Below, one piece after another: positions 15,491-39,047 of a DNA stretch of 64,000 bases. The DNA comes from Candidatus Uhrbacteria bacterium. Its GTDB lineage: Bacteria; Patescibacteriota; Patescibacteriia; UBA9934; GWF2-40-263. The stretch is taken from positions 34,489-98,488 of the forward strand of contig JACPHT010000008.1 of assembly GCA_016188475.1 (NCBI GenBank). The letters are read 5' to 3'. The notes beneath the pieces were generated by a model. That model was not told the DNA's origin and ran no database searches. It saw nothing but the letters and a program-made list of their open reading frames with translations. The position numbers and the translations under genes are program-made. The first letter of the stretch is position 1, and each line of letters opens with the position of its first letter.

Positions 15491-15653
15491 GCGCTGGTAG
15501 CTCAGCGGTAGAGCAAGAGCCTTTTAAGCTCGTGGCCGTGGGTTCGATGCGCGAGCGAGCGAGGGGAGAGACCAAGCCAAATGCTTGGACTATCCCGAGC
15601 GAACGAACGCAATATGGCCGAGCCGTTTTAGGCGAGAGCCATATCCCCACCCA
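15491..15653 (+). pseudogene. Disrupted tRNA-Lys copy. Positions 1-58 (15491-15548) are followed by a ~95-bp GC-rich insertion, then an 11-nt T-arm/acceptor fragment atccccaccca (15643-15653). The 3' acceptor strand is missing.
   Basis: Positions 1-58 are identical to the intact tRNA-Lys 137 bp downstream. Seen directly. Confidence 0.6.
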
Positions 15654-15684: not shown

Positions 15685-15759
15685 GCGCTGGTAGCTCAGC
15701 GGTAGAGCAAGAGCCTTTTAAGCTCGTGGCCGTGGGTTCGATCCCCACCCAGCGCACCA
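15685..15759 (+). tRNA. tRNA-Lys (anticodon TTT)
   Basis: Acceptor gcgctgg/ccagcgc perfect. Anticodon loop cttttaa. T-loop ttcgatc. CCA encoded. Followed by a terminator hairpin aaaacactcaa-cttg-tttgagtgtttt. Confidence 0.85.
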
Positions 15760-25337: not shown

Positions 25338-26300
25338 ATGATGTCTGACGCAATCAAAAATTTTCCAAAACAATTTTCTTACAAACCGGTTATCGAGCTG
25401 ACAAAACGGCTTAAAAAATTTAGTCACTACTATGTGATCGGTATGGGTGGATCTCATCTTGCGGCTGATCTTGCTTTGATTTGGAATCCAAAACTTCCAC
25501 TGACTATTGTTTCAGATTATGGACTGCCATCGCGAGTTACAAAAAAAGATTTGGTTATCGCGAGCTCTTATTCTGGAAATACAGAAGAAATAATTGACGG
25601 TCTCAAAATTGCGTTAAAGAAAAAAATACCGGTTGTTGTGATCGCTATTGGTGGAAAACTCATCGCACTCTCAAAAAAACACAATCTCCCATATATCCAA
25701 CTTCCAAACACAGGGATCCAACCACGTTGTGCTCTTGGATTTAGTTTGCGCGCGCTCTTGAAAATAGTTCGAGACGAACGCGGATTGCGAGAAAGTGCAA
25801 AACTTACAAAAACACTTGTCGCAACCAAATACGAAAAAGCCGGCCAAACACTCGCATCAAAACTTACTGGAAAAGTTCCTGTCATATATTCATCACAAAA
25901 CAACCTCGCGATCGCGTATAATTGGAAAATCAAACTCAACGAAACTGGAAAAATTCCTGCTTTTTATAATGTACTGCCGGAACTCAACCACAATGAAATG
26001 AATGGATTTGATGTTCAACCAACAACCAAACAACTTTGCGATAAATTTCATTTTATATTTTTGAAAGATAAAAAAGATCATGCGCGCGTGCAAAAACGCA
26101 TGTCTATTCTTGAACAACTCTATCGACAGCGCGGTTTACCAGTAGAAATCGTTGAACTCCGAGGCAAAACAGCTTTTGAAAAAATGTTCTCTTCGCTTGT
26201 TTTGGCTGATTGGACAGCGGTTTATCTAGCAAAACACTATGGTTTGGAATCTGAACAAGTGCCAATGGTGGAAAAATTCAAGAAATTGATGAATTCATAA
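25338..26300 (+). CDS. Bifunctional phosphoglucose/phosphomannose isomerase (SIS domain, archaeal-type)
   Basis: VIGMGGSHLAADL. SIS fold. Size 320 aa. Confidence 0.65.
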   Translation: MMSDAIKNFPKQFSYKPVIELTKRLKKFSHYYVIGMGGSHLAADLALIWNPKLPLTIVSDYGLPSRVTKKDLVIASSYSGNTEEIIDGLKIALKKKIPVVVIAIGGKLIALSKKHNLPYIQLPNTGIQPRCALGFSLRALLKIVRDERGLRESAKLTKTLVATKYEKAGQTLASKLTGKVPVIYSSQNNLAIAYNWKIKLNETGKIPAFYNVLPELNHNEMNGFDVQPTTKQLCDKFHFIFLKDKKDHARVQKRMSILEQLYRQRGLPVEIVELRGKTAFEKMFSSLVLADWTAVYLAKHYGLESEQVPMVEKFKKLMNS

Positions 26301-26305
26301 AGGGG

Positions 26306-26334
26306 TTGACAAAAAAATCACCTATTGGTAATTT
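26306..26334 (+). promoter_or_regulatory. Sigma70-type promoter TTGACA-N17-TAATTT for the 26419 gene
   Basis: Consensus -35 hexamer with exact 17-nt spacing to the -10 box. SD aaaggaagg before ATG 26419. Confidence 0.55.
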
Positions 26335-26418
26335 CGGGTCGCAAGTCCGGAAATGCCGGACAAGTTTCTCAATTCCAGATCCCCATAGCGAGAGCGAGAG
26401 GGGGAAAGGAAGGTTCAC

Positions 26419-27300
26419 ATGGCTCTGGTGAAGGAAGCGGAGGTCAAGAAAATCTTGACCGCATACAACGGTTCTGTGGACGAAGGATCGCAACTCAACG
26501 TCGACGAGGTCTGTGCGAAGTTGGCCAAGGCAGGCGGAGGTCTCTCGGCGGCGGCTAAGGAGATGTCCTACGAGGATATCGAAGGTGCCGGGATTCCGAA
26601 GGCGGTTGCGCGCGCGATCAGCAAGGTCTGGCGCGGCGACGGCGAGAAGCCGGCAAAGCTCGGGCCGGAAGTCCAGATCGGCGGAGTCGAAGGAACGTTC
26701 GAGGCCCTGGCATTCGCCATGGGCAACATAGGTGCTTTCGGCGACAAGCCGCTCCTCAAGGTCTACGAACCTCTCGGTCGCGACGACGTCACTGGCGAGC
26801 TTCGCAAGCGCTCAGGTGACAAACCGTTCATCGCGTTCAGTGACAAGCAGACGCTGACGGTCGATGTGGAAGCATCGTATGGGAACCTCCAGCTACTCAA
26901 GCAGGGCGTCGAAATCGGCACAAACACAGTGATCAACGGGAAGCTGACAGAGCTCTTCAGGGCTGGAGAGCTTCCTGATCTCGCACTTCCGATCTGCCCG
27001 GTTCACGGGTGCCATCTCATCGGGGATGGTGAGTTCTGCAAGGAATGCAACTTCAGTTGGTCCGGAGTTTCGACCGAGGTTCGCGAGCTTGCGTGGTGTC
27101 ACGTCCAGAACGTGCTCGCGGAAGTTCCTGGCTCGCAGGACGCGAGACTCAAGCAGATCCTCGCCGCTCTCAGCGACGCAAAGGACCAGTACTGGTCCTC
27201 GGCAACGCTCGAGCTCGAGAAACTCAAGGCAACTGGCCAGCCCATCGTGCTGGTCAAGCCGGTCAAGCGTCCCGGACGCTCGACTCCGTCCCGCCGCTAG
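26419..27300 (+). CDS. Hypothetical protein with HhH-like motif (DIEGAGIPKAVARAIS) and C4 zinc ribbon (CPVHGC...CKEC)
   Basis: Motifs seen by eye. GC-rich. First gene of the island. Confidence 0.5.
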   Translation: MALVKEAEVKKILTAYNGSVDEGSQLNVDEVCAKLAKAGGGLSAAAKEMSYEDIEGAGIPKAVARAISKVWRGDGEKPAKLGPEVQIGGVEGTFEALAFAMGNIGAFGDKPLLKVYEPLGRDDVTGELRKRSGDKPFIAFSDKQTLTVDVEASYGNLQLLKQGVEIGTNTVINGKLTELFRAGELPDLALPICPVHGCHLIGDGEFCKECNFSWSGVSTEVRELAWCHVQNVLAEVPGSQDARLKQILAALSDAKDQYWSSATLELEKLKATGQPIVLVKPVKRPGRSTPSRR

Positions 27301-27320
27301 TACGGCAAACTTCTTCACTT

Positions 27321-27350
27321 CCGTGATCCATCTGGGTCACGGATTTTTTG
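27321..27350 (+). terminator. Intrinsic terminator ccgtgatcc-atctgg-gtcacgg + T6
   Basis: Stem plus T-run directly after the 26419 gene stop. Confidence 0.6.
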
Positions 27351-27362
27351 TACACAAAACTC

Positions 27363-27391
27363 TTGACACATTTACGAAAATCACGTAAAAA
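27363..27391 (+). promoter_or_regulatory. Sigma70-type promoter TTGACA-N17-TAAAAA
   Basis: Same architecture as the promoters at 26306, 31006 and 33998. Confidence 0.55.
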
Positions 27392-27452
27392 ACCTTGTCC
27401 TGCGCCTTCTAATCCTGAAGGATGCTGGAAGTACAATAAAAGTGAGGAAAAC

Positions 27453-28619
27453 ATGTCTCTCTCAAGCCTTAAGTCAGAGATCATCTTCCCCTACTTTCAA
27501 TCAGTTGGGGACCTAGATCCAAATTCCGCGACCGATCGTGTTGCGACGGAAATTCTCAAATCCGGGGCCGGTGTCAAAGCAGTTGCCGCGTCAATCCAAG
27601 CTGAAGACCTTATTGGAACAGAGCTTCCGCTTGCAATCAGAAAAGCGCTAGCAATTCGCATCAGAGAAGACGCAATCGCGACAGTCGAAGTTACAACAGG
27701 CGACACGCGAAAGAATCTTCGTCCGGGATCGTTCGATGATGTGATCGGCCACGCAGACTTCAAACGTCTCATGTCAAACGCGATCACTGCCGCGCGCAAG
27801 CAAGGCGTTCCTCTTCGCCATATTCTCTTGAACGGTCCGCGCGGACTTGGCAAAACCACTCTCGCTCTTGTGATCGCAAACGAGCTAAAAGCAAAAGCGC
27901 GTTTGCTCGTTGGATCGCAATTACGAACACCGGTCGACATCACGAACGAGGTTCTGCGATGGGAAAAAGGGTCGGTCGTTTTCATTGACGAGATCCACGG
28001 CATGAGCCGTGCCGCTCAAGAAACGCTTTACAGCGTGATGGAAGACGGCCGCTTGCCAATTACCGAAAAAAGAAAAGGACACCAGACAAAGACGAGCGTT
28101 CCAGCGCCATCAATCACGATCATTGGCGCGACAACAAATCCGTCCAAGTTGCTGGAGCCTTTCCGAAATCGGTTCGGGTCAAAGTATGAACTCGGTTTCT
28201 ACTCGAACGACGAGATGAAAAAGATCGGACAACGATCAGCATCCATTCTCGGTCTGACGATCGAACCATCGGCTGTTCAAAAGCTTGTTGCGCACTGTCG
28301 CGACAATCCACGCACTCTCAACGAGTTCCTGCTCCAACTGAACGATCTGTCCATTGCTCAATCGTTATTGTCCGTCACAGTCGAACACGTTTCAGACCTT
28401 TTGAAACTCAACGGCTATGATGAACAGGGTTTGCGTCCTGAAGAACGTCGCTATGTGGAAGCGCTCAAAACGATCGGTGGAAGTGGCAGTCTCAAAACCA
28501 TAGCCGAGACGCTTGACATGGAAGTTTCAGAAGTCGAAGGAACGATCGAGCGATGGTTGGTGCGTAAAGGAATGATTCGCCGGACTCCAAAAGGCCGGCA
28601 GATCATAGAAAGGAGCTGA
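27453..28619 (+). CDS. RuvB-family AAA+ ATPase paralog with ~50-aa N-terminal extension
   Basis: Collinear with RuvB over its whole length: LRP...IGH...LLNGPRGLGKTTLALVIANEL, FIDEIHGMS, LYSVMEDG, IGATTNPS, PFRNRFG, C-terminal winged helix RTPKGRQI. SD gagga before ATG 27453. Confidence 0.7.
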   Translation: MSLSSLKSEIIFPYFQSVGDLDPNSATDRVATEILKSGAGVKAVAASIQAEDLIGTELPLAIRKALAIRIREDAIATVEVTTGDTRKNLRPGSFDDVIGHADFKRLMSNAITAARKQGVPLRHILLNGPRGLGKTTLALVIANELKAKARLLVGSQLRTPVDITNEVLRWEKGSVVFIDEIHGMSRAAQETLYSVMEDGRLPITEKRKGHQTKTSVPAPSITIIGATTNPSKLLEPFRNRFGSKYELGFYSNDEMKKIGQRSASILGLTIEPSAVQKLVAHCRDNPRTLNEFLLQLNDLSIAQSLLSVTVEHVSDLLKLNGYDEQGLRPEERRYVEALKTIGGSGSLKTIAETLDMEVSEVEGTIERWLVRKGMIRRTPKGRQIIERS

Positions 28620-28622
28620 GAA

Positions 28623-29765
28623 ATGGACTTTCCTGTTATTGTTCTAAAAACTGGAAAAGAGTCAATCCCGGACGGCCCTGCCGTAATCATAATCGCGAAA
28701 AACGGCAAGTTTCTCTTGAAGCGACTTGGAATAGTCGAGGCCGCGGTTCCGTACACAGACCAGATTTCAGGACTTGCCGAATACGAGACTTGGGCAGAGC
28801 TCAATGTTGAGAAAATTCCGTTCGAGATCTTCATCCAGGTCTTTCACTTCATGCGAACGATCTACAACAACAAGAAGACGGAATGCAATGTGATTCTGTT
28901 CTATCATCAAAAGGAAAAACAGTGGGCTGTTGTGGTTCCACCACAGATTGTCTCGCACAGCAGTGTGCACTATCAGGATGGTATCGCGGGAGCGAAAGAC
29001 GGATGGATCAAAGTTGGAACACTCCACAGTCACTGCGACTTTTCAGCAGGACATAGCGGTGGCGATCACAGAGACGAAGAGCACTTCGACGGAATCCACA
29101 TCACGCTCGGTCACGTTGACAAAGACGAACCCACATTGAGTGTAAGTCTTGTCGTCAACGGCATGCGGTTCATGAAAACTCCGCAAGAATACATTGCTGG
29201 AGTCAAACGTGTTGAAGAAAAAGAAATGGTCCAGGAATACGAAACAAAGTGGGTTGATGGCGATGATACCGCTGACGAAAGTCACGCAGAGCAAGAAGAG
29301 TCTTTGGTGACTAGCATGTGCACATTAGTGACTAGATTTCTACCGAAGTTCGGTGGTGGGGAGATCGGCGGTACTAGTAACACATATGTCAAACCCAGTT
29401 GGCCTACCAAGGTCTACAAGTACAGACCCCAAAAGCGAATCGAAGTTCCAACCAAAATGGTGGAACGCACAGTCTCCAGACTTGTGTTCGACTTTCCTGA
29501 AGGAAAAAAGGTGGAGGATTATGAATTTCCGCAGGAATGGTTGGACAATGTGAAGACATCGTACGAGTTGCACAAGATGGAACATCCTGTTCGTCCAAGA
29601 CGGAGAAGAAAATTCCGTGATGCGGGCGTTTCAAAAAGTAACGACCATCAACAAGAGTCAATAAACAATGAGGAAGAAGAAACAGCTTACACATGTATGA
29701 CCGACGATGAACTTGCGGAGATAATCTCAAGGCATCAACGTGGATGCCAAGAAGGAGAAGAATGA
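28623..29765 (+). CDS. JAB/MPN (JAMM) metallopeptidase-domain protein
   Basis: Exact JAMM motif HSHCDFSAGHSGGD (HxHx7Sx2D) at 29025-29066, with an upstream Glu. SD ggag before the ATG. Only a 3-nt gap after the RuvB-like stop. Confidence 0.7.
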   Translation: MDFPVIVLKTGKESIPDGPAVIIIAKNGKFLLKRLGIVEAAVPYTDQISGLAEYETWAELNVEKIPFEIFIQVFHFMRTIYNNKKTECNVILFYHQKEKQWAVVVPPQIVSHSSVHYQDGIAGAKDGWIKVGTLHSHCDFSAGHSGGDHRDEEHFDGIHITLGHVDKDEPTLSVSLVVNGMRFMKTPQEYIAGVKRVEEKEMVQEYETKWVDGDDTADESHAEQEESLVTSMCTLVTRFLPKFGGGEIGGTSNTYVKPSWPTKVYKYRPQKRIEVPTKMVERTVSRLVFDFPEGKKVEDYEFPQEWLDNVKTSYELHKMEHPVRPRRRRKFRDAGVSKSNDHQQESINNEEEETAYTCMTDDELAEIISRHQRGCQEGEE

Positions 29766-29766
29766 G

Positions 29767-30534
29767 ATGAAGGAACTGAACATCGTGGTAGTCGGAATAG
29801 GAGGTGTTGGAAGCGCTCTTGTTCCAAAGCTCTGTCGCTATTGTCAGCACATCAAGCCCCAGGTTCCTGTCAGTCTGGTTCTGATCGACGGAGACTTGTA
29901 CGAACAGAACAACGCGAATCGACAGTCGTTTCATCGGTTCGGAAACAAAGCAGAGGTTACGGTTGAAGCTCTCGCGCCTCAATTCGACCGAATTCAACTC
30001 TCGGCAATAGCCGAGTTCCTCAAACCCGACAACATTGACTTCATCATCGCTGAAGGCTCGATCGTTTTCCTGTGCGTTGACAACAACACATCAAGAAAGA
30101 TGGTCGATGATTTCACACACAAGTTCAAGAACATTGTCGTCATCTGCGGCGGAAACGACATGACTGACGGAAACGTACAGATCTACATCCGTCGCAAAGG
30201 CAAGGACATAACAGCATCACTCGCTGACATTCATCCAGAAATCGCTTCGCCACAAGGCAAGGCTCCGTATCAAATGAACTGCGAAGAGCTAGCGATGGCA
30301 TCATCTCCACAGCTTTTCTTCGCCAACGATTTGGTCAGCGCTCTGATGTGTCTGGTCTTCTACCAGATAATCGAAGTCAAGGACTTTCTTGACAAACCTA
30401 GGTTCGGTGAGCTTTACTTTGACATGCTACTAGGTCGCGTTGAATCTGTTGTTCGAAATCCTGTTGTCAAAGTGGCACAGGTTGATCGAAAAAAGTGTAA
30501 GGGCAAGTCCAAGCCAGCAAAGAAAGGAAGGTAG
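29767..30534 (+). CDS. E1-like ubiquitin-activating enzyme of the minimal ThiF/MoeB type. The track's alternative GTG start is 29740.
   Basis: Rossmann VVVGIGGVGS. DGDLYEQNNANRQ (DxDxxExxNxNRQ) at 29887-29925. CVDNNTSR. Catalytic-Cys loop NCEELAMASSPQ. SD ggagaag. Start is 1 nt after the JAB stop. Confidence 0.7.
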   Translation: MKELNIVVVGIGGVGSALVPKLCRYCQHIKPQVPVSLVLIDGDLYEQNNANRQSFHRFGNKAEVTVEALAPQFDRIQLSAIAEFLKPDNIDFIIAEGSIVFLCVDNNTSRKMVDDFTHKFKNIVVICGGNDMTDGNVQIYIRRKGKDITASLADIHPEIASPQGKAPYQMNCEELAMASSPQLFFANDLVSALMCLVFYQIIEVKDFLDKPRFGELYFDMLLGRVESVVRNPVVKVAQVDRKKCKGKSKPAKKGR

Positions 30535-30536
30535 TG

Positions 30537-30953
30537 ATGGCAAGGAGATACTCGGAGCAGGAACTTCTCGGCAAGACCAAGTTGAGTCTGCGAGAGGTCT
30601 GCAATGAAATCGGGCTCGAGTTCAACAATAGCATGAGCATCGACGAACTGGTCAAGGCAATCATGAAGCGTCAAGGTGGTGCGCAGAACGCAGCGCCTGC
30701 AGAAGACGACGGAGACACAACGGACAACGAAAACGAAGGCGGTTCTGTAACTGTGACCTGTGGCGCTTCGAGCCAGGTCCTGGAAGTCGCTGGCAAGTCT
30801 ATCGCGTACGTTCGCAGGGAATACGCGTCCGTTTTCAACATCGGTCGCGAAAGCAAGGCAATGCTCAACGGAGCCGAGGAGAACGACGAAAGTCACATTC
30901 TCGAAGACGGGGACAACCTCGAGTTCGTCAAGAAGAGCGGAGACAAAGCATAA
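30537..30953 (+). CDS. Rho_N-like helix-hairpin domain fused to a ThiS/MoaD-like beta-grasp ubiquitin-like domain, ending ...LEDGDNLEFVKKSG-DKA
   Basis: N-terminus SEQELLGKTKLSLREVCNEIGLEF...SIDELVKAIMKRQ, a Rho_N pattern. C-terminus has the beta-grasp DGD...EFV...SG pattern with a 3-residue tail. Its ATG sits 2 nt after the E1 stop TAG (the alternative GTG start at 30534 overlaps it). Confidence 0.55.
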   Translation: MARRYSEQELLGKTKLSLREVCNEIGLEFNNSMSIDELVKAIMKRQGGAQNAAPAEDDGDTTDNENEGGSVTVTCGASSQVLEVAGKSIAYVRREYASVFNIGRESKAMLNGAEENDESHILEDGDNLEFVKKSGDKA

Positions 30954-30976
30954 ACTAGTCTTCCGCTGGTAACTTA

Positions 30977-31005
30977 CCCACGACAAACTGTCGTGGGATT
31001 TTTTA
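30977..31005 (+). terminator. Intrinsic terminator cccacgaca-aac-tgtcgtggg + T-run
   Basis: 9-bp perfect stem with T-run, seen directly. Confidence 0.7.
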
Positions 31006-31034
31006 TTGACAAAAAATTACTTTTGATGTAAAAA
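31006..31034 (+). promoter_or_regulatory. Sigma70-type promoter TTGACA-N17-TAAAAA
   Basis: Same module as the other island promoters. Confidence 0.55.
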
Positions 31035-31081
31035 ATCTCGTCTGCCAAGAATGGCAGTGCTCATTACAATGAGGTTACAAC

Positions 31082-33790
31082 ATGAGTATTTGGGAAGAAA
31101 CCGCAATCCATCTCACTCCAGACGGCCTTGCCGAACTTCGCACTGACCGTGTGAAATCAACACCAAAAGGAACTCCACTCAGACTTAAAGTGGCACGCCG
31201 AAGTTTTGCGATAACAGACTTGCTCGGCAAACAGAGCGAACAGGAAATCAATCACCGCTTTTGTCGTTTCGTATACACAAAAGGAAATGTTACATGGTAC
31301 GTGGTCGAAGAGCCTCCGTGCATACGAACGGTAACATGGTCATTCTTAAATGAAGATTGGAAAAAAATCCAAGATCGAGGATTGATCCGCAAGTTGGGCC
31401 TGGATCCAAAAACAGATTCAAAGCGAACACGATTTCAATTCGCGTTCCCGTACACGATTTTTCTTCTGCCAATCTCGCCATATGATGGCGGGGTTTCACT
31501 CGGGTTGGGACAGATAGCGCTCCGCGCAGAACCACTACGCAGTCTTCAGGACGACCTATTCTGGGCTCCGTTTTCAAACCAAAGAAGTACAAACGGCGAT
31601 ATGTGTCTTGGAGATAAGAGACCAAGCAAAGCTAAGGCTCCGTGCGAGCTGATTGATCAGCTTATCGCTCACTGGTGGCTAAGCAATTTCAATGATCACT
31701 GGGTCGAGCGATACATAACGTATCAGGAACGAATCCCTGAAATGGCAACGCCATGGGAATGGGAATACTACAGCAAAAGGCGCCCATCATGGGTTCTTGA
31801 AGCTGATTGGATTCGAATGGGAATGACAGTCGAAGAAAAACTCGTCGTTGGCAAAAGTAATAAAACCACTATATTCGCGGATCTTGCGAGAATAGCCAAG
31901 TCTGCTCCAGAAGTGATTCCTGGATCTGACTGGAAAAAAACTAAAAAAGACGAAGCTCGCGCAACAAAAGCGACACTTATGCCTTACGGACAGACAGTTC
32001 AGGTTGGTGACGAGTTTTACTGTACAAACTCTGTGTTAGATTTCCAAGCTGGCAAAACATACAATGTAAATAATATAGAAAACTGCTCATGCGGCGATCC
32101 AGGACACACAGCCTTGTACTTTCAAGGTGGTGGATGTTTGAAGGCCTGTGATGTTCATCATTACTTTCAACGCGCTGACAAATTTCCAACACAACTGTTT
32201 CAGATTGGGTCGCATCAGATCTGGACCGGAACAAAATTCGTCCTCGTGAACAATGATGACATTACTGGAATTCGCACTGGCGCATACATGATCTCGGCGT
32301 TGATGGTAGACCAAGAAGGTGATGTCAAAATCAGAGTCTCTGGACTTTCTGGCTGGATTTACATAACGCACGAACAAACTCTCTTGCCATCTATCAGACT
32401 GTTCATTCCTGAACTCAAGGACAACACGTTTACATACGGCGAGTCCACATTGAAAGTCGGGACAACTGTCAATGTGGTAAACGGCGCAACGAAGATCCAA
32501 AATAAACTGTTACGTGTTGAATCAATAACTCAAGAGGATCAGTCATACTTCGTGACATTCGAAGGACGACAGGAACGATTTTCTCTCTTTTCGAGCGGAA
32601 CCCTTCAGATGAATTGGGAGACGACCGTTTACGAATTCTCTGAACAGCGCGTCGGATTCGGAAAAAAAATTCTTGATTTGACCACTCACACACATATTCT
32701 TGTAAGAGTGGCTGAACAACCGCTTCGCAACGGGACAATATACGAAGCACTTCACTTCGTTCATCCTGAAGGCAAGCACCCACTTGACGTTGACCTTTTA
32801 ATCGCAAACGGAAACGAAACAATTCCGGTTGTTCGCGATTCAAAATGGGTCTTCCCTGAAGCATACACTCCTGTCACGGTCATCTACCAAGATGACGCGT
32901 TGACACTTAAGTCAGGCGAAGTCTTGGTTTGCCAAATAACCGATGTTCCAGGAATCAAAAAAAACGAAGAGGTGACCATACTGTGCTTTATGGAGTCATC
33001 AATTGAAAATCGAAGGCTGATCATAGTCCTGACTGATGGACGAACGATTTGCCTTACGCAAGATACATTGAAGTACTTTGTCCGTAAGGCAAAACCAACA
33101 TGGACCGTGGAAGAGGTAAGACGACTTCCTGAAATATGGTTTAACACAAGCAAAGCGTTTGAGAAACCTCAATCGCTTAACACACTTCCAAAACCGCTCG
33201 TCAGAGCAATCTTGAAGAGAAAAAGCCTAAAGGGCTTTGGTCAGTTTGTTTCTAAGGACTTCAACGGCAACGCTCTTCATATCGGAGACATTGTGTGTAT
33301 TCGCTATATTGCGTTTTTCCAAGGAAACGGTGGTATAGAATCGCAGTACAGTAATAAGTACGCGCTGGTTGTTCATTCATATCTGAATCCAGCACAAAGA
33401 TACTATTACTCATACCTCTTCCTTGGAGTTCAAACTGCTGAAGGAAGAGTTAACATCAGAAGCGACTCTGCTGAATTTGAGAAAGTGGATCCTGAATACC
33501 AAGGTCAAGAAGCCAGAAGACAAATGGCTATCAACATAAACGATTATCTTCAAGTGTGCACCTTCGATGATAGTTTCACTACTATGATCGAAGAAGGGTC
33601 GCTTGTCAGGATTCGTCATGATGTAAATCCAAAGTACGGCCGCGGAAACGTGCAAGCAAACGAAGTCGGAAGAGTTCGTCGACTTATTGAAAACGAGGAG
33701 GTCGTTGTTGACTTCCCCGCAGAAACTGAATGGATCGGACTGATCAACGAGATTGAAATCTGTCCATTTGAGCCTAGCCAACATGTTTAG
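31082..33790 (+). CDS. Large hypothetical protein A (902 aa), paralog of 34082-36682
   Basis: Many conserved blocks with paralog B (PPCIRTV..W, TRFxxAFPYTIF, WEWE, LLPSI..IP.LKDNTFT.G, TILCF). No known motif recognised. Confidence 0.6.
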   Translation: MSIWEETAIHLTPDGLAELRTDRVKSTPKGTPLRLKVARRSFAITDLLGKQSEQEINHRFCRFVYTKGNVTWYVVEEPPCIRTVTWSFLNEDWKKIQDRGLIRKLGLDPKTDSKRTRFQFAFPYTIFLLPISPYDGGVSLGLGQIALRAEPLRSLQDDLFWAPFSNQRSTNGDMCLGDKRPSKAKAPCELIDQLIAHWWLSNFNDHWVERYITYQERIPEMATPWEWEYYSKRRPSWVLEADWIRMGMTVEEKLVVGKSNKTTIFADLARIAKSAPEVIPGSDWKKTKKDEARATKATLMPYGQTVQVGDEFYCTNSVLDFQAGKTYNVNNIENCSCGDPGHTALYFQGGGCLKACDVHHYFQRADKFPTQLFQIGSHQIWTGTKFVLVNNDDITGIRTGAYMISALMVDQEGDVKIRVSGLSGWIYITHEQTLLPSIRLFIPELKDNTFTYGESTLKVGTTVNVVNGATKIQNKLLRVESITQEDQSYFVTFEGRQERFSLFSSGTLQMNWETTVYEFSEQRVGFGKKILDLTTHTHILVRVAEQPLRNGTIYEALHFVHPEGKHPLDVDLLIANGNETIPVVRDSKWVFPEAYTPVTVIYQDDALTLKSGEVLVCQITDVPGIKKNEEVTILCFMESSIENRRLIIVLTDGRTICLTQDTLKYFVRKAKPTWTVEEVRRLPEIWFNTSKAFEKPQSLNTLPKPLVRAILKRKSLKGFGQFVSKDFNGNALHIGDIVCIRYIAFFQGNGGIESQYSNKYALVVHSYLNPAQRYYYSYLFLGVQTAEGRVNIRSDSAEFEKVDPEYQGQEARRQMAININDYLQVCTFDDSFTTMIEEGSLVRIRHDVNPKYGRGNVQANEVGRVRRLIENEEVVVDFPAETEWIGLINEIEICPFEPSQHV

Positions 33791-33817
33791 CTAAGACCGC
33801 AATGTCAGCCCAAATTC

Positions 33818-33958
33818 ATGATGGGCAAAGCGCAACACGGCGAGCATGGTGTCTTCAAAGAACTTCTCAATGACGGCGTGGTTGTCGTGGACTTTCCAAA
33901 CCATCAAGGGTGGTTTGGAGACATAAACGACATCCAACCAGCCGGTACAACGAAATAG
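33818..33958 (+). CDS. Small ORF (46 aa), MMGKAQHGEHGVFKELLNDGVVVVDFPNHQGWFGDINDIQPAGTTK
   Basis: Resembles the C-terminal block of protein A (GRVRRLIENEEVVVDFPAETEWIGLINEIEI). No clear SD. Confidence 0.3.
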   Translation: MMGKAQHGEHGVFKELLNDGVVVVDFPNHQGWFGDINDIQPAGTTK

Positions 33959-33972
33959 GTCATGTTCTCTGT

Positions 33973-33996
33973 CCTGCCTAAAAGGCAGGATTTTTT
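33973..33996 (+). terminator. Intrinsic terminator cctgcc-taaaa-ggcagg + T-run
   Basis: Seen directly. Confidence 0.65.
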
Positions 33997-33997
33997 C

Positions 33998-34026
33998 TTG
34001 ACAAAAAAACAAAAAAGCGGTAAAAG
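33998..34026 (+). promoter_or_regulatory. Sigma70-type promoter TTGACA-N17-TAAAAG
   Basis: Same module. SD aggaaag before ATG 34082. Confidence 0.55.
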
Positions 34027-34081
34027 AATAGGCCGCATTTTGCGGTCGCCCTTTACAAAAACCTTTCAAAGGAAAGTGAAA

Positions 34082-36682
34082 ATGGCTGGAAAACTTATCG
34101 TCTTGAGTGACAAGGAAACCGCAACGCTCACAGATGACAGTGGAAGTTCAACTGTTCCGCTGTCTGCAATAGCCACAAGCGATTCAAAAGGTACTCTTCT
34201 TCCAACCGATTGTCGGATTCACATTACCAACGGTCTGGCAAGTGTGTTTGTTATCGAACAACAGCCATGCGTTCGTGATGTGAACTGGAACACAAGTAAA
34301 GATGAATGGAAAAATCTCATCTCTCGCGGAGCAAAATCATTCGCGCAAGTGAAAGGAAACGAAACAAAAACACGGTTCCGTCTCGCCTTTCCATACACAA
34401 TTTTCATTGTTCGAATGGAAGGAATATGTGTTACGAGCATACGCGTTTTCTTCCGTAGCCACACGATCTCAACACCGACTGATTATCTTCAGCAAGCAGG
34501 GCTTCTAAAAGACGACACTCTGGTTGTTGAAGATCAAAAACAGATTCTTCATCATGGCATGACACAAGCCAGTACTGTTAACGTGGCTGTTGAATACTTC
34601 TGGCATCAAACACTCGGAACAGGTGAACTGATCGGAACTGTTCATCCAGACGTTCCTGAAGTGTCAAGTGTTTGGGAATGGGAATCGGCTTCGCGCAAGC
34701 ATCAAGACTGGATTCTCAAAGCACAGTGGGAAAAAACCGATCTCAACTTGAAAACCGCATCGCAAGCAATGTTGCAGTTACCTGATGCGAAAGATGGTGA
34801 AGACCAGACTTTCGCCACAGTCGCCGCGCGAATCCGTCATAGTGTGCCAAACAAGAAAACGCGCGACCACGAATTGATCGAGAGTCCATGTGTTTCCATA
34901 ATGCTTGGAACAACTCGTTTACGACAAGGCGATACGATCGTTTCTAGCAAACGCCAGTTCGGATGCAAAAAAGACAAGCAATACCTTGTGCTTGGATTCT
35001 ACGAACGAACAAGCAAAGGCGTTGTGCACGCAAGACTTGATGGAGTTGCCAATCCTGTTCCGATTGGAACTTCCAAAGGCTTGGTTGATTTCAAGCTCTT
35101 ACAACCTGAACGAGAAGTCGTGAGTGAGATAACGTACAATGGAGTCGTGTTCAAAACAGGAACAAAATTCTGTGTCTCATCAGGCGAAGACATAGGTTTG
35201 TTAGCAACAGACATTGAATACATAATAAAGAAACTCGAGGTTGATTCTGAGGGAGATGCCAGAGTCAAGATTGCTGACTTAAATACTTGGTTCTATATCA
35301 CATACGATGGCGGAAAACTTCTGCCGTCAATATATCAAAACATTCCGAGTCTCAAAGACAATACTTTCACTTTCGGCAAGCAGAAAATGAGTGTTGGGAC
35401 GTTTGTGGAAATCACTGGAAGCGCGGCAAAAGTTCAAGACACTCTTCTCCGAGTTGCTTCGATCGCTCAAGAGCGCGAAGCATACATTGCCACGTTTGAA
35501 GGACATGAAGAAAAAATCACCATTTACAAAAATGGTGAGCGTCAAATCGATTGGAACACAGTAACATACGAATTCTCGGACAAGCGAGTTGTGCTTGGCA
35601 ACAAAGTTCTGGATCTGACTGATTGCGAATCTATGCTTATAACAATATCAGAAGATTCTCAAGAAGTCGGAAAAATGCACAAAGTGAAAGGCCTTGTTCA
35701 TCCAACAGATGGACACAGGTTTGATGTGAACCTCGTTGTTGACGATAAGCAGATCCCAGTGATCAAACATTCAAACTGGGTCTTCAGAATCAAGCACGAA
35801 CAAGTATCTGACAGATATGATGATGGAGCTTTGACTCTGCAATCAGGTGAAGTCCTCATATGCGTGGATACAATCACTGGTCTGACCAAGGACGAGGAGC
35901 TGACTATTCTGTGTTTTGGCAAAAACAAAACAACCAAAGATCTCACTGACATCATTTTCTCTGATGGACGAGCGATAAACATGACTCAAGCGTCTCTCAA
36001 GCTATTCTCTCGCAAAGATGGGAAGCCGTGGAGTGAGAAAAAAATTGCAAAACTCCCGCAAGGTTCTCCTCCAACGACTCGAGTGCAACAAGGTGAACGC
36101 TGTAGAGTAACGACTAATAACATCAACGGTGAAATCGGAACTGTAACTGACAAATCGTACGACGATAGGTTTGTAAAATTCGACAATCCTCAACCAAACG
36201 GTCGTGGACCGACAATTACAGAAGGCTGGTTTCTGTATAAATACCTTGAACGTCTTGATAAGTCCAAAGTCACATGGTGTTTCTCCAAAAATGCTAGAGT
36301 TGAAAAACGAAGCGATGGGACTTTAATCCAACTTCCAACAGAGCTGATAATAGAGCTCACAACCATTCAACGAATACCCACAAAACTGACGGATTTGTTT
36401 GGGAACTCTTTGTCTGTTGGCGACATCGTCGTGCCAATTTATCAAGGATTCACTAAAGAATGTCCTAGACGAGTAATCGGAATTCCGATGCTAGTCGTTC
36501 ACTACAGTTCAAGCGGTTCTCCATTCTTGTTTCTCTGGGCTGGATCTACACACAAACCTGGAGTGTTAAGCCGCGACTGTCGTGATTTCAATACAATAAC
36601 AATAGCCTTCAAAGATCGTCTTAACGAACTCTACGTCAACCCGCCGAAAGATTGTGAAAAAATCACTTTCATCGAAGCCTAA
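34082..36682 (+). CDS. Large hypothetical protein B (~866 aa from ATG 34082). The track start 33962 lies upstream of the promoter and is rejected.
   Basis: Paralog of A. Confidence 0.6.
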   Translation: MAGKLIVLSDKETATLTDDSGSSTVPLSAIATSDSKGTLLPTDCRIHITNGLASVFVIEQQPCVRDVNWNTSKDEWKNLISRGAKSFAQVKGNETKTRFRLAFPYTIFIVRMEGICVTSIRVFFRSHTISTPTDYLQQAGLLKDDTLVVEDQKQILHHGMTQASTVNVAVEYFWHQTLGTGELIGTVHPDVPEVSSVWEWESASRKHQDWILKAQWEKTDLNLKTASQAMLQLPDAKDGEDQTFATVAARIRHSVPNKKTRDHELIESPCVSIMLGTTRLRQGDTIVSSKRQFGCKKDKQYLVLGFYERTSKGVVHARLDGVANPVPIGTSKGLVDFKLLQPEREVVSEITYNGVVFKTGTKFCVSSGEDIGLLATDIEYIIKKLEVDSEGDARVKIADLNTWFYITYDGGKLLPSIYQNIPSLKDNTFTFGKQKMSVGTFVEITGSAAKVQDTLLRVASIAQEREAYIATFEGHEEKITIYKNGERQIDWNTVTYEFSDKRVVLGNKVLDLTDCESMLITISEDSQEVGKMHKVKGLVHPTDGHRFDVNLVVDDKQIPVIKHSNWVFRIKHEQVSDRYDDGALTLQSGEVLICVDTITGLTKDEELTILCFGKNKTTKDLTDIIFSDGRAINMTQASLKLFSRKDGKPWSEKKIAKLPQGSPPTTRVQQGERCRVTTNNINGEIGTVTDKSYDDRFVKFDNPQPNGRGPTITEGWFLYKYLERLDKSKVTWCFSKNARVEKRSDGTLIQLPTELIIELTTIQRIPTKLTDLFGNSLSVGDIVVPIYQGFTKECPRRVIGIPMLVVHYSSSGSPFLFLWAGSTHKPGVLSRDCRDFNTITIAFKDRLNELYVNPPKDCEKITFIEA

Positions 36683-36694
36683 CCATTCTTTCTT

Positions 36695-36730
36695 ATCGCC
36701 GTCGTGCACCAGCACCGGCGATTTTTTATT
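36695..36730 (+). terminator. Intrinsic terminator atcgccg-...-cggcgat + T6
   Basis: Seen directly. End of the island. Confidence 0.65.
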
Positions 36731-36838: not shown

Positions 36839-39028
36839 CTATATCTTCATCTTTTTTAGTCTGAGCGAATTCAACACAACTGAAATTGACGAAAACGCCA
36901 TCGCGGCTGAAGCGATAACTGGATTTAATAATCCAAGCGCGGCAAGTGGAATACCAATCACGTTATAAATAAACGCCCAAAATAAATTTTGTTTGATTGT
37001 TCTGTTTGTGCGACGCGAAATTTCGATTGCTTGAATAACTTTTTCTGGTCCGCCGCCAACAAGAACAATTTGTCCTGCTTCAATCGCAATATCCGTTCCA
37101 CTTCCAACCGCGATTCCAAGATCAGCTTGAGTGAGCGCTGGCGCATCATTGATTCCATCTCCAACAAAAGCGACTTTCTGTCCTTTGTTTTGCGCGTCTT
37201 TCACAATCTCGAGTTTTTGATCAGGAAACACTTGCGATCGAACATCTTCAATTCCAAGTTGTCGCGCGATCGCTTCGGCTGTTTGTTTTTGATCGCCGGT
37301 AATCATCACAACACCGATTCCTTTTTGTTTAAGTCTTTCAATCGTTTCTTTCGCGTTTGGTTTCACAGCATCAGCAATTCCAATCACGCCAATCGCCTGC
37401 AAGTCTCGTGCAACAATTACAACTGTCTTCCCTTCTTCGGAAAGTTTTGAAATTGTTTGATGTAAAATCGGTGATACGACGACACCAAGCTCATCCATCC
37501 ACCTTGATTGACCAACGCGAATCATTGTTTCACCAACACGAGCTTCTATTCCTTTTCCTGTTACAGAACGAAAATCTTTCACCGTTTCAATGGAAATTTT
37601 TTCATCGTTCGCTTTCATAACAACCGCGTGCGCAAGCGGATGTTCAGAAAGCGATTCAACCCCTGCCGCAACACGCAAAACCTCTTGCTCATTTTGACCT
37701 TCTATCGCAACAAGATCCGTAACAACTGGTTTCCCAATTGTGAGCGTTCCTGTTTTATCAAACATGACGACATTTAGTGTTCGACCACGCTCAAGAGCTT
37801 CCCCACTTTTAATCAGAATTCCCATTTGAGCTCCGCGACCGGTTCCAACCAAAATCGCGGTCGGAGTAGCAAGACCAAGCGCACACGGACACGCGATCAC
37901 GAGCACTGCCACAGCCGCGATAAGCGACATCGCAATACCACCGGTTACAAAGAACCAAATTATGAAAGTTAAAATCGCTATTCCAATCACTGCCTGAACA
38001 AACACCGCTGACACACGATCAACAAGTTTTTGAATTGGAGCTTTTTTCTGCTGTGCCTCTTTCACAAGCCTGACAATCTGCGCGAGAACCGTGTCACTGC
38101 TTTCTTTTTCAACCTCAACTGTCAAAGCGCCTTGTTGATTCAGTGTCGCGCCGTAAACAAGATCGCCTACTTTTTTTGAAACAGGCAAACTCTCGCCTGT
38201 TAGCATTGATTCATCAACTGACGAAGCGCCGTCTTTAATTGTTCCATCAATAGGAATCTTCTCGCCAGGCTTCACAAGAACAATATCGCCTTTTTTGAGC
38301 GACTCAATCGGAACGTCTTCTGTACTTCCATCCAACGATCGCTTATGCGCAAATTTTGCCCCAAGTTCGAGCAATTTTTGAATCGCGGCGCTTGCCTGAC
38401 CTTTACTTCTGGCTTCCAAATATCGTCCAATCAAAATAAAGGCAGTTATGATCGCAGCGGTTTCAAAATACTTTGGCTGATTTACCGCAAATGCCCACCA
38501 ACTCAATGCGAGAGCGGCGAGCGTTCCAAGCGAAATGAGAGAATCCATGCTAGCGGTTTTGCGCAACATTTGTTGAAAAGCCGCCTTGTGAAAAACCATT
38601 CCGGTTCCAAGAACAACATAAGTTCCGCCGATTGCTTCAATCCAATTTGAAATCTGTTCGCCGAAAATTTCAGGTCCAAATTTCAAACGCGCTGTTGCGA
38701 TTATCAAAACCGGTAACGCAACAACACTCGCTACAATAGCTCGAGTCAATACTTCTTTTTCTGATCCATGCGCGTGCTGTTCATGCTGTTCACCATGTTC
38801 TTCATGTTCCATGTGTTGTTCCATTTGTCGAACACGGTAACCTTCTTTTTGCACGATTTGATGAAGCGCGTGTTCTTGCACTTTCTCTGGATCAAACTCA
38901 ATTGTTGCTTCAGCAAGCGCATAATTCACATTCGCGCTTTGCACGCCTTCTGTTTTTTTGAACGCGGCTTCGATTCGAATCGCGCACGACGCGCAGTGCA
39001 TTCCGTCAATGTTGAATGTTGATTTCAT
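36839..39028 (-). CDS. copA: Copper-translocating P-type ATPase. The ORF track gives 39040 with a TTG start.
   Basis: N-terminal [15 protein letters not shown]. His-rich segment. [18 protein letters not shown]. Confidence 0.9.
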
Positions 39029-39047
39029 AAAAATAGTCAATGAAGTC

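Follow-up and report, generated by a model that had tools for sequence, protein, structure and literature searches.

A 64,000-nucleotide stretch of a Candidatus Uhrbacteria bacterium (here the window; assembly GCA_016188475.1, contig JACPHT010000008.1, positions 34,489 to 98,488) carries a seven-gene ubiquitin-like (Ubl) cassette (26419-36722) that ends in two very long genes, A and B, and raises the question of what these two contribute to the Ubl machinery beside them. A first-pass annotation had described them as tandem ~900-aa paralogs with no recognisable domains, and as obvious candidates for substrates, scaffolds or effectors of that machinery. We propose instead that A and B would together form the conjugation module of the cassette, with A as its E2 and B as a UEV-like pseudo-E2, a reading built on sequence comparison to which we give a probability of roughly 60%.

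The cassette and the limits of its two longest genes

The features of the cassette, all on the forward strand, are as follows.

26419..27300, +, g1, 293 aa, fold unassigned, with a conserved zinc-ribbon-like motif C-P-x-H-x-C-H...C-x2-C (ORF)
27320..27343, +, terminator-like hairpin and U-run after g1 (dG -17.2, z -4.6)
27348..28619, +, RuvB-like AAA+ ATPase paralog with an N-terminal extension, start uncertain (Pfam RuvB_N 2e-37)
28623..29765, +, JAB/JAMM metallopeptidase with a long variable C-terminal tail (Prok-JAB 0.0093 and PRTRC_A 3.5e-8, sub-threshold)
29767..30534, +, ThiF-type E1 with a GIGGVG nucleotide loop (ThiF 2.1e-18; PRTRC_ThiF 6.5e-11, sub-threshold)
30534..30953, +, g5, the Ubl: N-terminal Rho_N/HeH-like helix pair, acidic linker and ThiS/TGS-like beta-grasp
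30977..30997, +, terminator-like hairpin after the Ubl gene, then TTGACA-N17-TAAAAA (z -4.7)
31082..33958, +, gene A, 958 codons, interrupted by a TAG at 33788-33790 (ORF list, ortholog alignment)
31082..31936, +, UBC/E2-fold domain of A, residues 1-285, Prok-E2_D lineage
31577-31579, +, Asn166 codon of A
31604-31606, +, codon of the putative catalytic Cys175 of A
31964..33181, +, array of small SH3/Tudor/KOW-like beta-barrels in A, residues ~295-700, also in B
33596..33937, +, two Mind-bomb/HERC2-type SH3 repeats of A, residues 839-895 and 900-952
33971..33991, +, terminator-like hairpin after A, then TTGACA-N17-TAAAAG (z -4.4)
34082..36682, +, gene B, 866 aa, start corrected from 33962 (ortholog alignment)
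34082..34900, +, E2-fold-family domain of B, residues 1-273, pseudo-E2/UEV-like
36695..36722, +, bulged terminator hairpin and U-run after B, the right-hand end of the island (dG -15.8, z -4.95)

The two long same-strand reading frames lie where the first-pass annotation had placed them, and the limits of both have moved. The first-listed ORF for A (31082-33790, 902 aa) stops at an in-frame TAG in codon 903 (33788), which is GAG in a 78%-identical ortholog, and the frame stays open and conserved for a further 55 codons up to 33958, differing there from the ortholog by nine synonymous and 10 non-synonymous changes, the same ratio as upstream. These codons encode the last SH3 repeat, the second of the HERC2/Mind-bomb type, which is missing from the 902-aa product as written, and on this sequence comparison the true end of gene A is 33958 and not 33790. 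Programmed read-through by a suppressor tRNA was rejected, none of the nine tRNAs in the window having a CUA anticodon, so that the TAG remains a nonsense mutation or a sequencing error. For B, the first-listed ORF (33962-36682, 906 aa) begins just upstream of the terminator hairpin of A and its frame would cross that hairpin; since its orthologs have 866-869 aa, the start was set at the ATG at 34082.

A and B are true paralogs (BLASTP, 31% identity across 640 aa, E = 1e-94), most strongly conserved between residues ~295 and 700 of A, and the blocks by which they had been recognised as such (PPC(I/V)R.V.W, TRF..AFPYTIF, WEWE, LLPSI..IP.LKDNTFT and TILCF) are all present. At least three divergent cassettes, in different genomic contexts, contain the pair, which bears out the earlier suggestion of an old tandem duplication that has been retained, and according to the ORF list A and B do occupy over half of the island. 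The GC content of the island is atypical within the window. A Cys/His cluster (CSCGDPGH..., residues 335-361) is found in A and is missing in B, as had been noted, but it is half gone in 78%-identical orthologs and wholly gone in 40%-identical ones; a zinc site was rejected on this non-conservation, and the cluster is lineage-specific and unlikely to matter. Each gene had also been credited with its own promoter and terminator. The terminators hold up, with hairpin and U-run at z -4.4 to -5.0, and two divergent orthologous cassettes (L001 and L006) have terminator-like hairpins in the same four intergenic gaps. The promoters fare less well: TTGACA-N17-TAAAA(A/G) follows the terminators upstream of both A and B, as read by eye at consensus level, but a promoter scan gave no more sites than in shuffled sequence.

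Upstream of A, g1 is a separate transcription unit with no family match in Pfam, NCBIfam or PHROG scans; its orthologs stand at the same position in L001, L004 and L006, and it is missing from the reduced cassettes L005 and L010. The ATPase has the RuvB_N, AAA lid and RuvB_C winged-helix domains and scores 246.7 bits against NCBIfam RuvB, under the 282-bit equivalog cut-off. The JAMM motif H-x-H-x7-S-x2-D of the metallopeptidase is intact (HSHCDFSAGHSGGD, 29025-29066) and invariant in five orthologs, and JAB homologs with 36-41% identity adjoin giant E2s in L009 and L022. The E1 has an invariant Cys181 by alignment (30280-30282); its ORF is open from a GTG at 29740, and orthologs favour the ATG at 29767. 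The Ubl ends in ...KKSGDKA, that is with Ala and not Gly-Gly; its orthologs give sub-threshold matches to ThiS (1e-3 and 0.012), TGS (0.0067-0.12) and Rho_N (4.3e-4), and homologs of 80 aa and 168 aa with 35-46% identity are found in the L022 and L009 cassettes. A ThiS/MoaD sulfur-carrier pathway for the E1/Ubl pair was rejected on account of its strict linkage to a JAB and an E2-like protein and of the lack of adjacent thiamine or Moco genes. No second E2 candidate besides A and B was recognised in the cassette.

An E2-type domain at the N-terminus of A and B

In direct scans with Pfam, NCBIfam, PADLOC and PHROG the impression of proteins with no recognisable domains stands, the sole match being phrog_4317 on the C-terminus of A (E = 0.0099), which was disregarded. 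It gives way under profile and structure searches, which identify an E2/UBC domain and Mib/HERC2 SH3 repeats. The family also looked like an orphan in a word-indexed homolog search, which returned merely five and eight relatives, an impression overturned by an exhaustive profile search with 1,595 matches at E <= 1e-3, some of them due to the SH3 repeats; among the best 150 of these there are at least 117 N-domain clusters. The family is common to CPR bacteria and phage-like contigs, and all members looked up are unnamed or 'hypothetical'. No description of a giant-E2 family was found in the literature searched, a scope outside which the papers defining Prok-E2_A-E fall.

By profile and structure searches each protein opens with ~280 residues that form a UBC/E2-fold domain of the Prok-E2_D/PRTRC-B lineage, running from a beta-meander through an active-site loop to C-terminal helices. 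PF14460 (Prok-E2_D) is matched at E <= 0.01 by 14 of 55 relatives, two of them (P0118 and P0143) above its cut-off (27.3 and 27.9 bits vs 25), and the matched stretches span the FPY...R...D.L..N...C..FW core, the active-site region; PRTRC_B (TIGR03737) is weakly matched by five of the 55 (best E = 6e-4). A and B themselves do not match PF14460 even at E <= 1 and reach no Pfam or NCBIfam threshold, so that their assignment as E2s is transitive and structural. A search of PDB sequences with the N-domain profile gave just a chance choline-kinase match (E = 1.5).

Asn166 and Cys175 of A lie in the loop that leads from the beta-meander to the first long helix, the Cys in the post-meander loop being preceded by an HPN-type Asn as in a catalytic E2, and both residues are kept in 99 of 117 N-domains. 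The N-x8-C motif, found throughout the family, corresponds in alignment to the HPN...Cys of UbcH5; in hhalign the register places N166 on N77 and C175 on C85 of UbcH5B, the only match to a canonical E2, at a probability of only 6.6% and with E2 sequences entered by hand. The His-Pro is missing before Asn166. Formation of a thioester between A and an E1-delivered Ubl is putative, the genomic linkage to a ThiF E1, a Ubl and a JAB being what is observed here. In B both residues of the active-site region (AGLLKDDTLVVED, 34496-34534) are substituted, which sets it apart from a catalytic E2, and B-type copies lack the Asn and the Cys in all four paired cassettes (the window, L001, L004 and L006). 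In the tree the B-type N-domains form a near-monophyletic clade, that is, a near-single origin of the loss. The E2-fold domain of B is under purifying selection as strong as that of A (dN/dS 0.21 vs 0.23), and B has this much in common with a UEV or pseudo-E2: it is a UBC-fold paralog that has lost its catalytic Cys and is still maintained. In each protein constraint is strongest in the N-domain.

Beyond the N-domain, A and B each continue as an array of SH3/Tudor/KOW-like barrels, bearing out the earlier view of them as beta-rich with SH3/Tudor-like C-terminal blocks. The two C-terminal repeats of A are assigned to the Mib repeat/SH3_15 domain (PF18346) by a profile match and an SH3-like barrel, with 28% identity to a HERC2 domain; B of this lineage has no Mib/HERC2 repeats. 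Since E2-type domains stand together with a string of SH3-like domains, A and B are most likely the missing conjugating enzyme of the cassette and its partner, and A is possibly, by analogy, a UBE2O-like E2/E3 hybrid.

Genomic contexts and competing explanations

In nine of nine distinct contexts read, which include a reduced JAB-E1-Ubl-A cassette, the giant E2 adjoins a ThiF gene; JAB and a small Ubl were identified in eight, only the ThiF being examined in the ninth (L023). Homology to housekeeping or cell-surface proteins that occur without a Ubl module was sought and did not appear, every homolog context having ThiF and usually JAB and a small Ubl; the functional tie that had been suspected between the pair and the adjacent Ubl machinery is supported. 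The B-type copy, g1 and the AAA+ ATPase are all three present in four cassettes and all missing from two, suggesting that they co-occur.

The part originally assigned to A and B was that of substrates, scaffolds or effectors, with the E1 alone conjugating, after the pattern of archaeal SAMP/UbaA or of E2-less, Pup-like systems. They do account for more than half of the island, most of their length is protein-binding barrels, conjugation to a protein of the same operon is established for bacterial Ubl systems such as CBASS, and E2s often modify themselves, so that target and enzyme are not mutually exclusive. However, the Asn-x8-Cys in a UBC fold is retained by most homologs, the N-domain is where constraint is greatest in both proteins, and in the reduced cassette A is the sole partner of JAB, E1 and Ubl. 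We consider this explanation unlikely: with Asn166 and Cys175 kept, A appears to be the conjugating enzyme of the cassette and B a UEV-like dead copy, so that the role is likely a different one, and A and B are probably not passive substrates.

A second and similarly improbable explanation takes the N-domains as non-catalytic, Ubl-binding UEV/RWD-like modules in which Cys175 is structural, A and B then being readers or adaptors of Ubl-modified proteins, which they would feed to the RuvB-like AAA+. Such a role would fit the presence of an AAA+ ATPase within the cassette and an Asn without the preceding His-Pro, but the reduced cassettes L005 and L010 drop the AAA+ and keep A, and A is the one recognised E2 of the cassette. 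Moreover, Asn and Cys are lost jointly in the B clade only and both are kept elsewhere, which is the pattern expected of catalytic residues.

Under a third explanation A and B would be structural proteins of phage origin or cell-surface proteins, similar to SH3-rich fibres or adhesins, and mere neighbours of ThiF and JAB. This is very improbable in spite of their beta-rich repeats, the atypical GC of the island, the homologs in phage-like contigs and BFVD matches that are Caudovirales proteins. PHROG gave no structural match, tblastn of P0143 (a relative of A, used in place of A) against 50,697 phage genomes gave none either, and inspection of A and B by eye revealed neither a signal peptide nor a transmembrane segment. 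The genes are strictly linked to those of E1, JAB and Ubl in all contexts, and in L023 the module is surrounded by genes for DNA metabolism and RNA polymerase rather than by those for virions.

A possible conjugation pathway and its relation to known systems

If A and B are the conjugation module, the E1 would adenylate the C-terminus of the Ubl, which carries a conserved G-[D/N]-K-[A/G] motif; in this genome the motif is already exposed, whilst relatives have one to four further residues, with tails such as GDKA-ARSR and GNKG-LI, that JAB would trim. The Ubl would then pass from the E1 to Cys175 of A as a thioester, and A, like UBE2O, would work as an E2/E3 hybrid that needs no separate E3, its barrel array holding the substrate. 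B may pair with A or bind Ubl non-covalently, like Mms2/Uev1 with Ubc13, steering the choice of target or linkage, and JAB would also undo conjugation. Two features, the RuvB-like ATPase and the fusion of the Ubl to an HeH-type domain, may point to targets bound to DNA, and as phage-like contigs have the core module too, the system may play a part in conflicts between virus and host or with mobile elements.

Among the closest known systems is PRTRC. Besides the link of the N-domain family to PF14460 and, weakly, PRTRC_B, the best NCBIfam match of the cassette JAB is PRTRC_A, and PRTRC_ThiF is among the best of its E1. These scores (33.2 bits vs a cut-off of 101.8 for PRTRC_A, and 42 vs 144.75 for PRTRC_ThiF) are far below threshold, however, no cassette gene matches ParB in Pfam or NCBIfam, and in a crude test GxRRxRA was absent from all frames of the window; membership of PRTRC (TIGR03735-03737 and related models) was rejected on the cut-offs and the missing ParB. 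The cassette also differs from PRTRC in an E2 of ~900 aa with SH3 arrays that is present as a putatively active and an inactive duplicate, in its additional RuvB-like AAA+ and Zn-ribbon protein, and in being chromosomal in CPR bacteria, tblastn of A against plasmids giving no match. To our knowledge PRTRC and Prok-E2_D have been described in silico only.

Bacterial Ubl conjugation (CBASS Cap2/3, Bil, Bub) is a recently active field in which few operon types have been studied. Compared with CBASS Cap2/Cap3, Bil (BilABCD) and Bub, the cassette has a giant, duplicated E2 of another family, lacks a CD-NTase, and includes a HeH-like-fused Ubl and a RuvB-like ATPase; a role in defence is conjectural. 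The PADLOC and NCBIfam markers of CBASS type II, Bil and 6A-MBL are not found in it: no PADLOC system model fits, E1-E2 models match weakly on ThiF (E ~5e-4) and not on A or B, and 6A-MBL cap2_3 of NCBIfam scores 15.9 bits against a cut-off of 320.

Among eukaryotic systems, UBE2O is an E3-independent E2/E3 hybrid. In A the domain order is reversed, with the E2 at the N-terminus, its UBC domain is from another lineage and the SH3 similarity is only at the level of a generic fold; E3-independent activity of A is a proposal by analogy. Ubc13-Mms2/Uev1a pairs an active E2 with a Cys-less UEV paralog; unlike that UEV, B has lost the Asn besides the Cys, both partners here are ~900 aa, the duplication arose independently of that in eukaryotes and the pairing of A with B is putative. 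The Mib/HERC2 SH3-like domain (SH3_15; PDB 4tse, 9l8y) is here on a bacterial E2, and its repeats are missing from B of the window, the second copy in A lying behind the stop codon.

A more far-reaching version of our proposal, which we hold only tentatively and consider doubtful as a whole, is that A and B form a prokaryotic E2-UEV heterodimer acting as a self-contained, E3-independent Ubl ligase, whose HERC2/Mind-bomb SH3 repeats and barrels would choose substrates, and that the seven-gene system around them (HeH-fused Ubl, E1, JAMM, RuvB-like AAA+ and Zn-ribbon), one not described before, would tag DNA-associated proteins of host or invader, its core of giant E2, JAB, E1 and Ubl being common to CPR bacteria and jumbo-phage-like genomes. 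If true, this would mean that the Mib/HERC2 repeat arose in prokaryotes and that the E2-UEV partnership was invented independently.

As far as we know, a giant E2 with substrate-binding arrays and a pair of active and dead E2s have so far been tied to eukaryotes (UBE2O and Ubc13-Uev). The cassette would add a different, Prok-E2_D/PRTRC-like E2 lineage of ~900 residues, with substrate-binding arrays built in and an active and a dead copy, and the C-terminal repeats of A bring into a bacterial Ubl system a module that is typically found in E3 ligases of eukaryotes. Structural relatives in cultivable phages, such as Acinetobacter phage vB_AbaM_ME3 (a borderline BFVD match, E = 1.2e-3, probability 0.75), could make the system experimentally tractable. 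For this Candidatus Uhrbacteria genome, the premature stop in A means that the Ubl system may be partly disabled. The family as a whole is large, unnamed and carried by ultra-small CPR genomes as well as phage-like contigs, and at an assumed size of ~1 Mb a 10-kb cassette takes up ~1% of a CPR genome.

Evidence for an E2-like domain in proteins A and B

Family scans run directly on the tandem ~900-aa paralogs A and B assigned no family, and to this extent the first-pass annotation's description of them as lacking recognisable domains stands; it fails once their relatives are considered, through which the N-terminal domain is linked to Prok-E2_D (PF14460). A word-indexed search recovered just a handful of A/B relatives, and an exhaustive profile search using the A+B family alignment returned 1,595 proteins at E<=1e-3, a count due in part to the C-terminal SH3 repeats, and 846 at E<=1e-10. 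Of the 150 highest-ranking cluster representatives, at least 117 had the N-terminal ~280 residues in common. When the relatives were scanned against Pfam, 14 of 55 matched PF14460 at E<=0.01 and two of the 55 passed its gathering cut-off of 25 bits (27.3 and 27.9 bits), the matching stretches corresponding to the conserved core ...LAFPY...R..PL.S..D.L....N......C.G....FW. Weak matches to PRTRC system protein B in five of the 55 fit with sub-threshold matches of the neighbouring JAB and E1 proteins to PRTRC_A and PRTRC_ThiF. By NCBIfam criteria the cassette does not qualify as a PRTRC system, its scores being far below the cut-offs and ParB being absent.

Asn166 and Cys175 (A numbering) are among the most conserved polar positions of the family, both being present in 99 of 117 N-domains, and are located in the loop leading from the last meander strand to the first long helix. 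UBC enzymes carry their HPN...Cys in the loop between meander and helix. Profile-profile comparison with four canonical E2s gave a single local match, of low probability (6.6%), which pairs SNQRStNGDMCLGD with HPNINS-NGSICLD, so that N166 falls on the Asn of HPN and C175 on the catalytic Cys.

The first protein of all four paired cassettes retains both residues (SNQRSTNGDMCLG, TNQRSDTGELCLG, TNIHADTGKICFK), whilst the second has neither N nor C (AGLL-KDDTLVVED, AGLT-TDDTWIVPD, VGIP----EISVSD). The representatives included 17 B-type N-domains, of which 14 fell in a single neighbour-joining clade of 17; this points to what was in essence one, ancient loss. B is not decaying, since its dN/dS between the window and L004, the locus of the 78%-identical ortholog of A, was 0.29 (A, 0.33), the N-domain being the most constrained part of both B (0.21) and A (0.23). 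Retention of a predicted-dead E2 paralog beside a predicted-active one resembles the UEV pattern of Ubc13 with Mms2/Uev1. Given the link to an E2 domain, with N and C kept in A and absent from B, A and B are most likely an E2 and a pseudo-E2, a reading that replaces the substrate or effector role first proposed for them.

Gene boundaries and transcription units

The paralogy of A and B is real and far above chance, as BLASTP aligned 640 aa at 31% identity (E=1e-94), with the final ~200 residues unaligned, and every conserved block quoted in the first-pass annotation was found in the two sequences. Its extent for the pair (31082-36682) holds as two head-to-tail ORFs on the forward strand, as written 902 aa (31082-33790) and 906 aa (33962-36682), but the end of A and the start of B were corrected from orthologs. 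A, which matches the NCBI hypothetical protein HYV69_03115 exactly and comes from a Candidatus Uhrbacteria (CPR/Patescibacteria) genome, has orthologs of 948-962 aa. Its codon 903 is TAG in the window and GAG in L004, and the 55 codons that follow, which run on to another TAG (33956-33958), are in frame, indel-free and conserved, with nine synonymous and 10 non-synonymous differences from L004 past the TAG (151 and 194 upstream). From ortholog length and these conserved codons gene A therefore spans 31082-33958, and the TAG at codon 903 is a very recent nonsense change, a sequencing or assembly error, or a site of read-through; no suppressor tRNA for it was found within the window. The B orthologs (866-869 aa) begin with MAGKLIV, so B starts at ATG 34082. 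The alternative ATG 33962 was rejected, since a frame opening there, shortly before the hairpin that terminates A (33971-33991), would run across this hairpin.

Features of the cassette (window coordinates)
26419-27300, forward strand: g1, 293 aa, no family match; conserved zinc-ribbon-like motif CP(V/I)H(G/E)CHL...FC..C
27320-27343: hairpin and U-run after g1
27348-28619, forward strand: RuvB-like AAA+ paralog with RuvB_N, lid and winged-helix domains and an additional N-terminal region
30534-30953, forward strand: Ubl gene, 139 aa, with HeH/Rho_N-like N-terminus and ThiS/TGS-like beta-grasp C-terminus
30977-30997: hairpin and U-run after the Ubl gene
33788-33958, forward strand: TAG plus extension of A, encoding the last HERC2/Mib-type SH3 repeat
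33971-33991: hairpin and U-run after A
36695-36722: hairpin and U-run after B

Each of the two genes had been credited with its own promoter and terminator. The terminators are well supported, since the four hairpins gave folding z-scores of -4.4 to -5.0 and the divergent cassettes L001 and L006 carry terminator-like hairpins of different sequence at the same four intergenic positions, implying four units, [g1] [AAA-JAB-E1-Ubl] [A] [B]. The promoters fared less well: TTGACA-N17-TAAAA(A/G) occurs downstream of the terminators preceding A and B, but a promoter scan gave no more sites than in shuffled sequence.

A contains two HERC2/Mib-type SH3 repeats (residues 839-895 and 900-952, the second past the TAG), and B-type proteins have none (window B), one (L001_B) or two (L006_B). 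The Cys/His cluster of A (residues 335-361) is not a conserved metal site, since it is half gone in the 78% orthologs and absent from the 40% orthologs.

As regards the other cassette genes, g1 ends in an invariant ATGQPIVLVKP and is confined to cassettes that also have the AAA+ protein and B, and the RuvB-like paralog scored 246.7 bits where the equivalog cut-off is 282 bits. The JAB protein has an intact JAMM motif (HSHCDFSAGHSGGD) and the ThiF E1 has GIGGVG and an invariant Cys181, both proteins being encoded upstream of A on the forward strand. The E1 ORF opens at GTG 29740, overlapping the JAB gene by 26 nt; ortholog starts match ATG 29767, which removes the overlap.

Genomic setting and distribution

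Housekeeping genes flank the cassette: to its left lie rplI and a gene for a bacterial PGI, to its right one for a copper P-type ATPase. GC content is 48-52% in the upstream part of the island (26000-31000), 42-45% over A/B and about 40-45% in the flanks, and the island ends showed neither an integrase or transposase nor a flanking tRNA. Elsewhere in the window, GC is very low (34-35%) at ~11-14 kb, and ARAGORN called two tRNA-Lys(UUU) genes 120 nt apart (15492-15562 and 15685-15759), the second alone reaching the Rfam tRNA gathering score.

The seven genes occur in unchanged order in three chromosomal neighbourhoods (L004, which is the window's own, L001-3 and L006-8), so the cassette travels as a whole. 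Reduced cassettes without g1, AAA+ and B were found in L005 (3096-8366; JAB-E1-Ubl-A) and in another Uhrbacteria genome, L010 (5358-10973; JAB-E1-Ubl and one 990-aa homolog), the giant E2 being single-copy and active-type in both. The left flank of L005 (DUF2938, Peptidase_C39_2, RNase_H_2) is also that of the full cassette in L001, so it was at this site that the accessory genes were acquired or lost. Joint presence of the RuvB-like AAA+, g1 and B in four of four full cassettes, and joint absence from both reduced ones, hints at an accessory sub-module. Just downstream of the giant E2 in L010 (10979-11833) lies a 284-aa protein homologous to the cassette JABs (E down to 2e-9) over their N-terminal ~105 residues only, an alpha+beta domain before the JAMM core.

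The core order giant E2 - JAB - ThiF - small Ubl also extends well beyond Uhrbacteria, the JAB and Ubl homologs of L009 and L022 being 30-41% and 24-46% identical, respectively, to those of window-type cassettes. In L022, an unrelated bacterial MAG, the cassette again adjoins a copper ATPase; an HMA heavy-metal P-type ATPase lies directly downstream on the opposite strand in both genomes (window 36839-39040; L022 14146-16440), which may be coincidence or a common insertion neighbourhood. In L009 and L023 the cassette follows radical-SAM and WYL genes. L023 (1-22586) has the order giant E2_D - 487 aa - ThiF - 164 aa - second ThiF - split multisubunit RNA polymerase genes, together with topoisomerase, an SbcCD-like pair, Pyr_excise, PTPS and helicase; its gene content suggests a jumbo-phage-like contig, L009 being grouped with it, and the Ubl module thus seems to be present in large phages too. 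With Foldseek against BFVD, four Caudovirales proteins, all uncharacterised, matched at E<=1e-3, and a protein of Acinetobacter phage vB_AbaM_ME3 came in at the borderline (E=1.2e-3, probability 0.75). Among GTDB species genomes, a pattern-limited scan picked out mostly Uhrbacteria, Falkowbacteria and other Patescibacteria, and all family member names looked up were blank or 'hypothetical'.

A putative Ubl conjugation pathway

In general terms the cassette is one of the bacterial E1-E2-JAB-Ubl operons, a class that Iyer, Burroughs and Aravind have described (PMC1779556). It fits none of the defence systems modelled in PADLOC, and a literature search, with the subscription papers defining the Prok-E2 families outside its scope, found no account of giant E2_D proteins with SH3 arrays, nor of an active copy paired with a dead one.

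In the proposed pathway the E1 would adenylate the Ubl and hand it on to A, where it would be held in thioester linkage at Cys175; the barrel array of A would hold substrates for transfer without a separate E3, by analogy with UBE2O; B would pair with A or bind the Ubl, steering specificity, and JAB would mature and remove the Ubl. The window Ubl ends in KKSGDKA, and across lineages (window, L005, L006, L009 and L022 orthologs) the C-termini are SGDKA, SGDKAARSR, SGDKAL and AGNKGLI, a conserved G-[D/N]-K-[A/G] replacing Gly-Gly, with tails of one to four residues (ARSR, L, LI) in relatives. These variable tails after a shared motif suggest that the mature Ubl may end at G-[D/N]-K-[A/G], tails being JAB-trimmed in some lineages. 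The HeH/Rho_N-like (DNA-binding-type) domain of the Ubl, joined to its beta-grasp via an acidic linker, together with the RuvB-like ATPase, suggests that the targets are DNA-associated.
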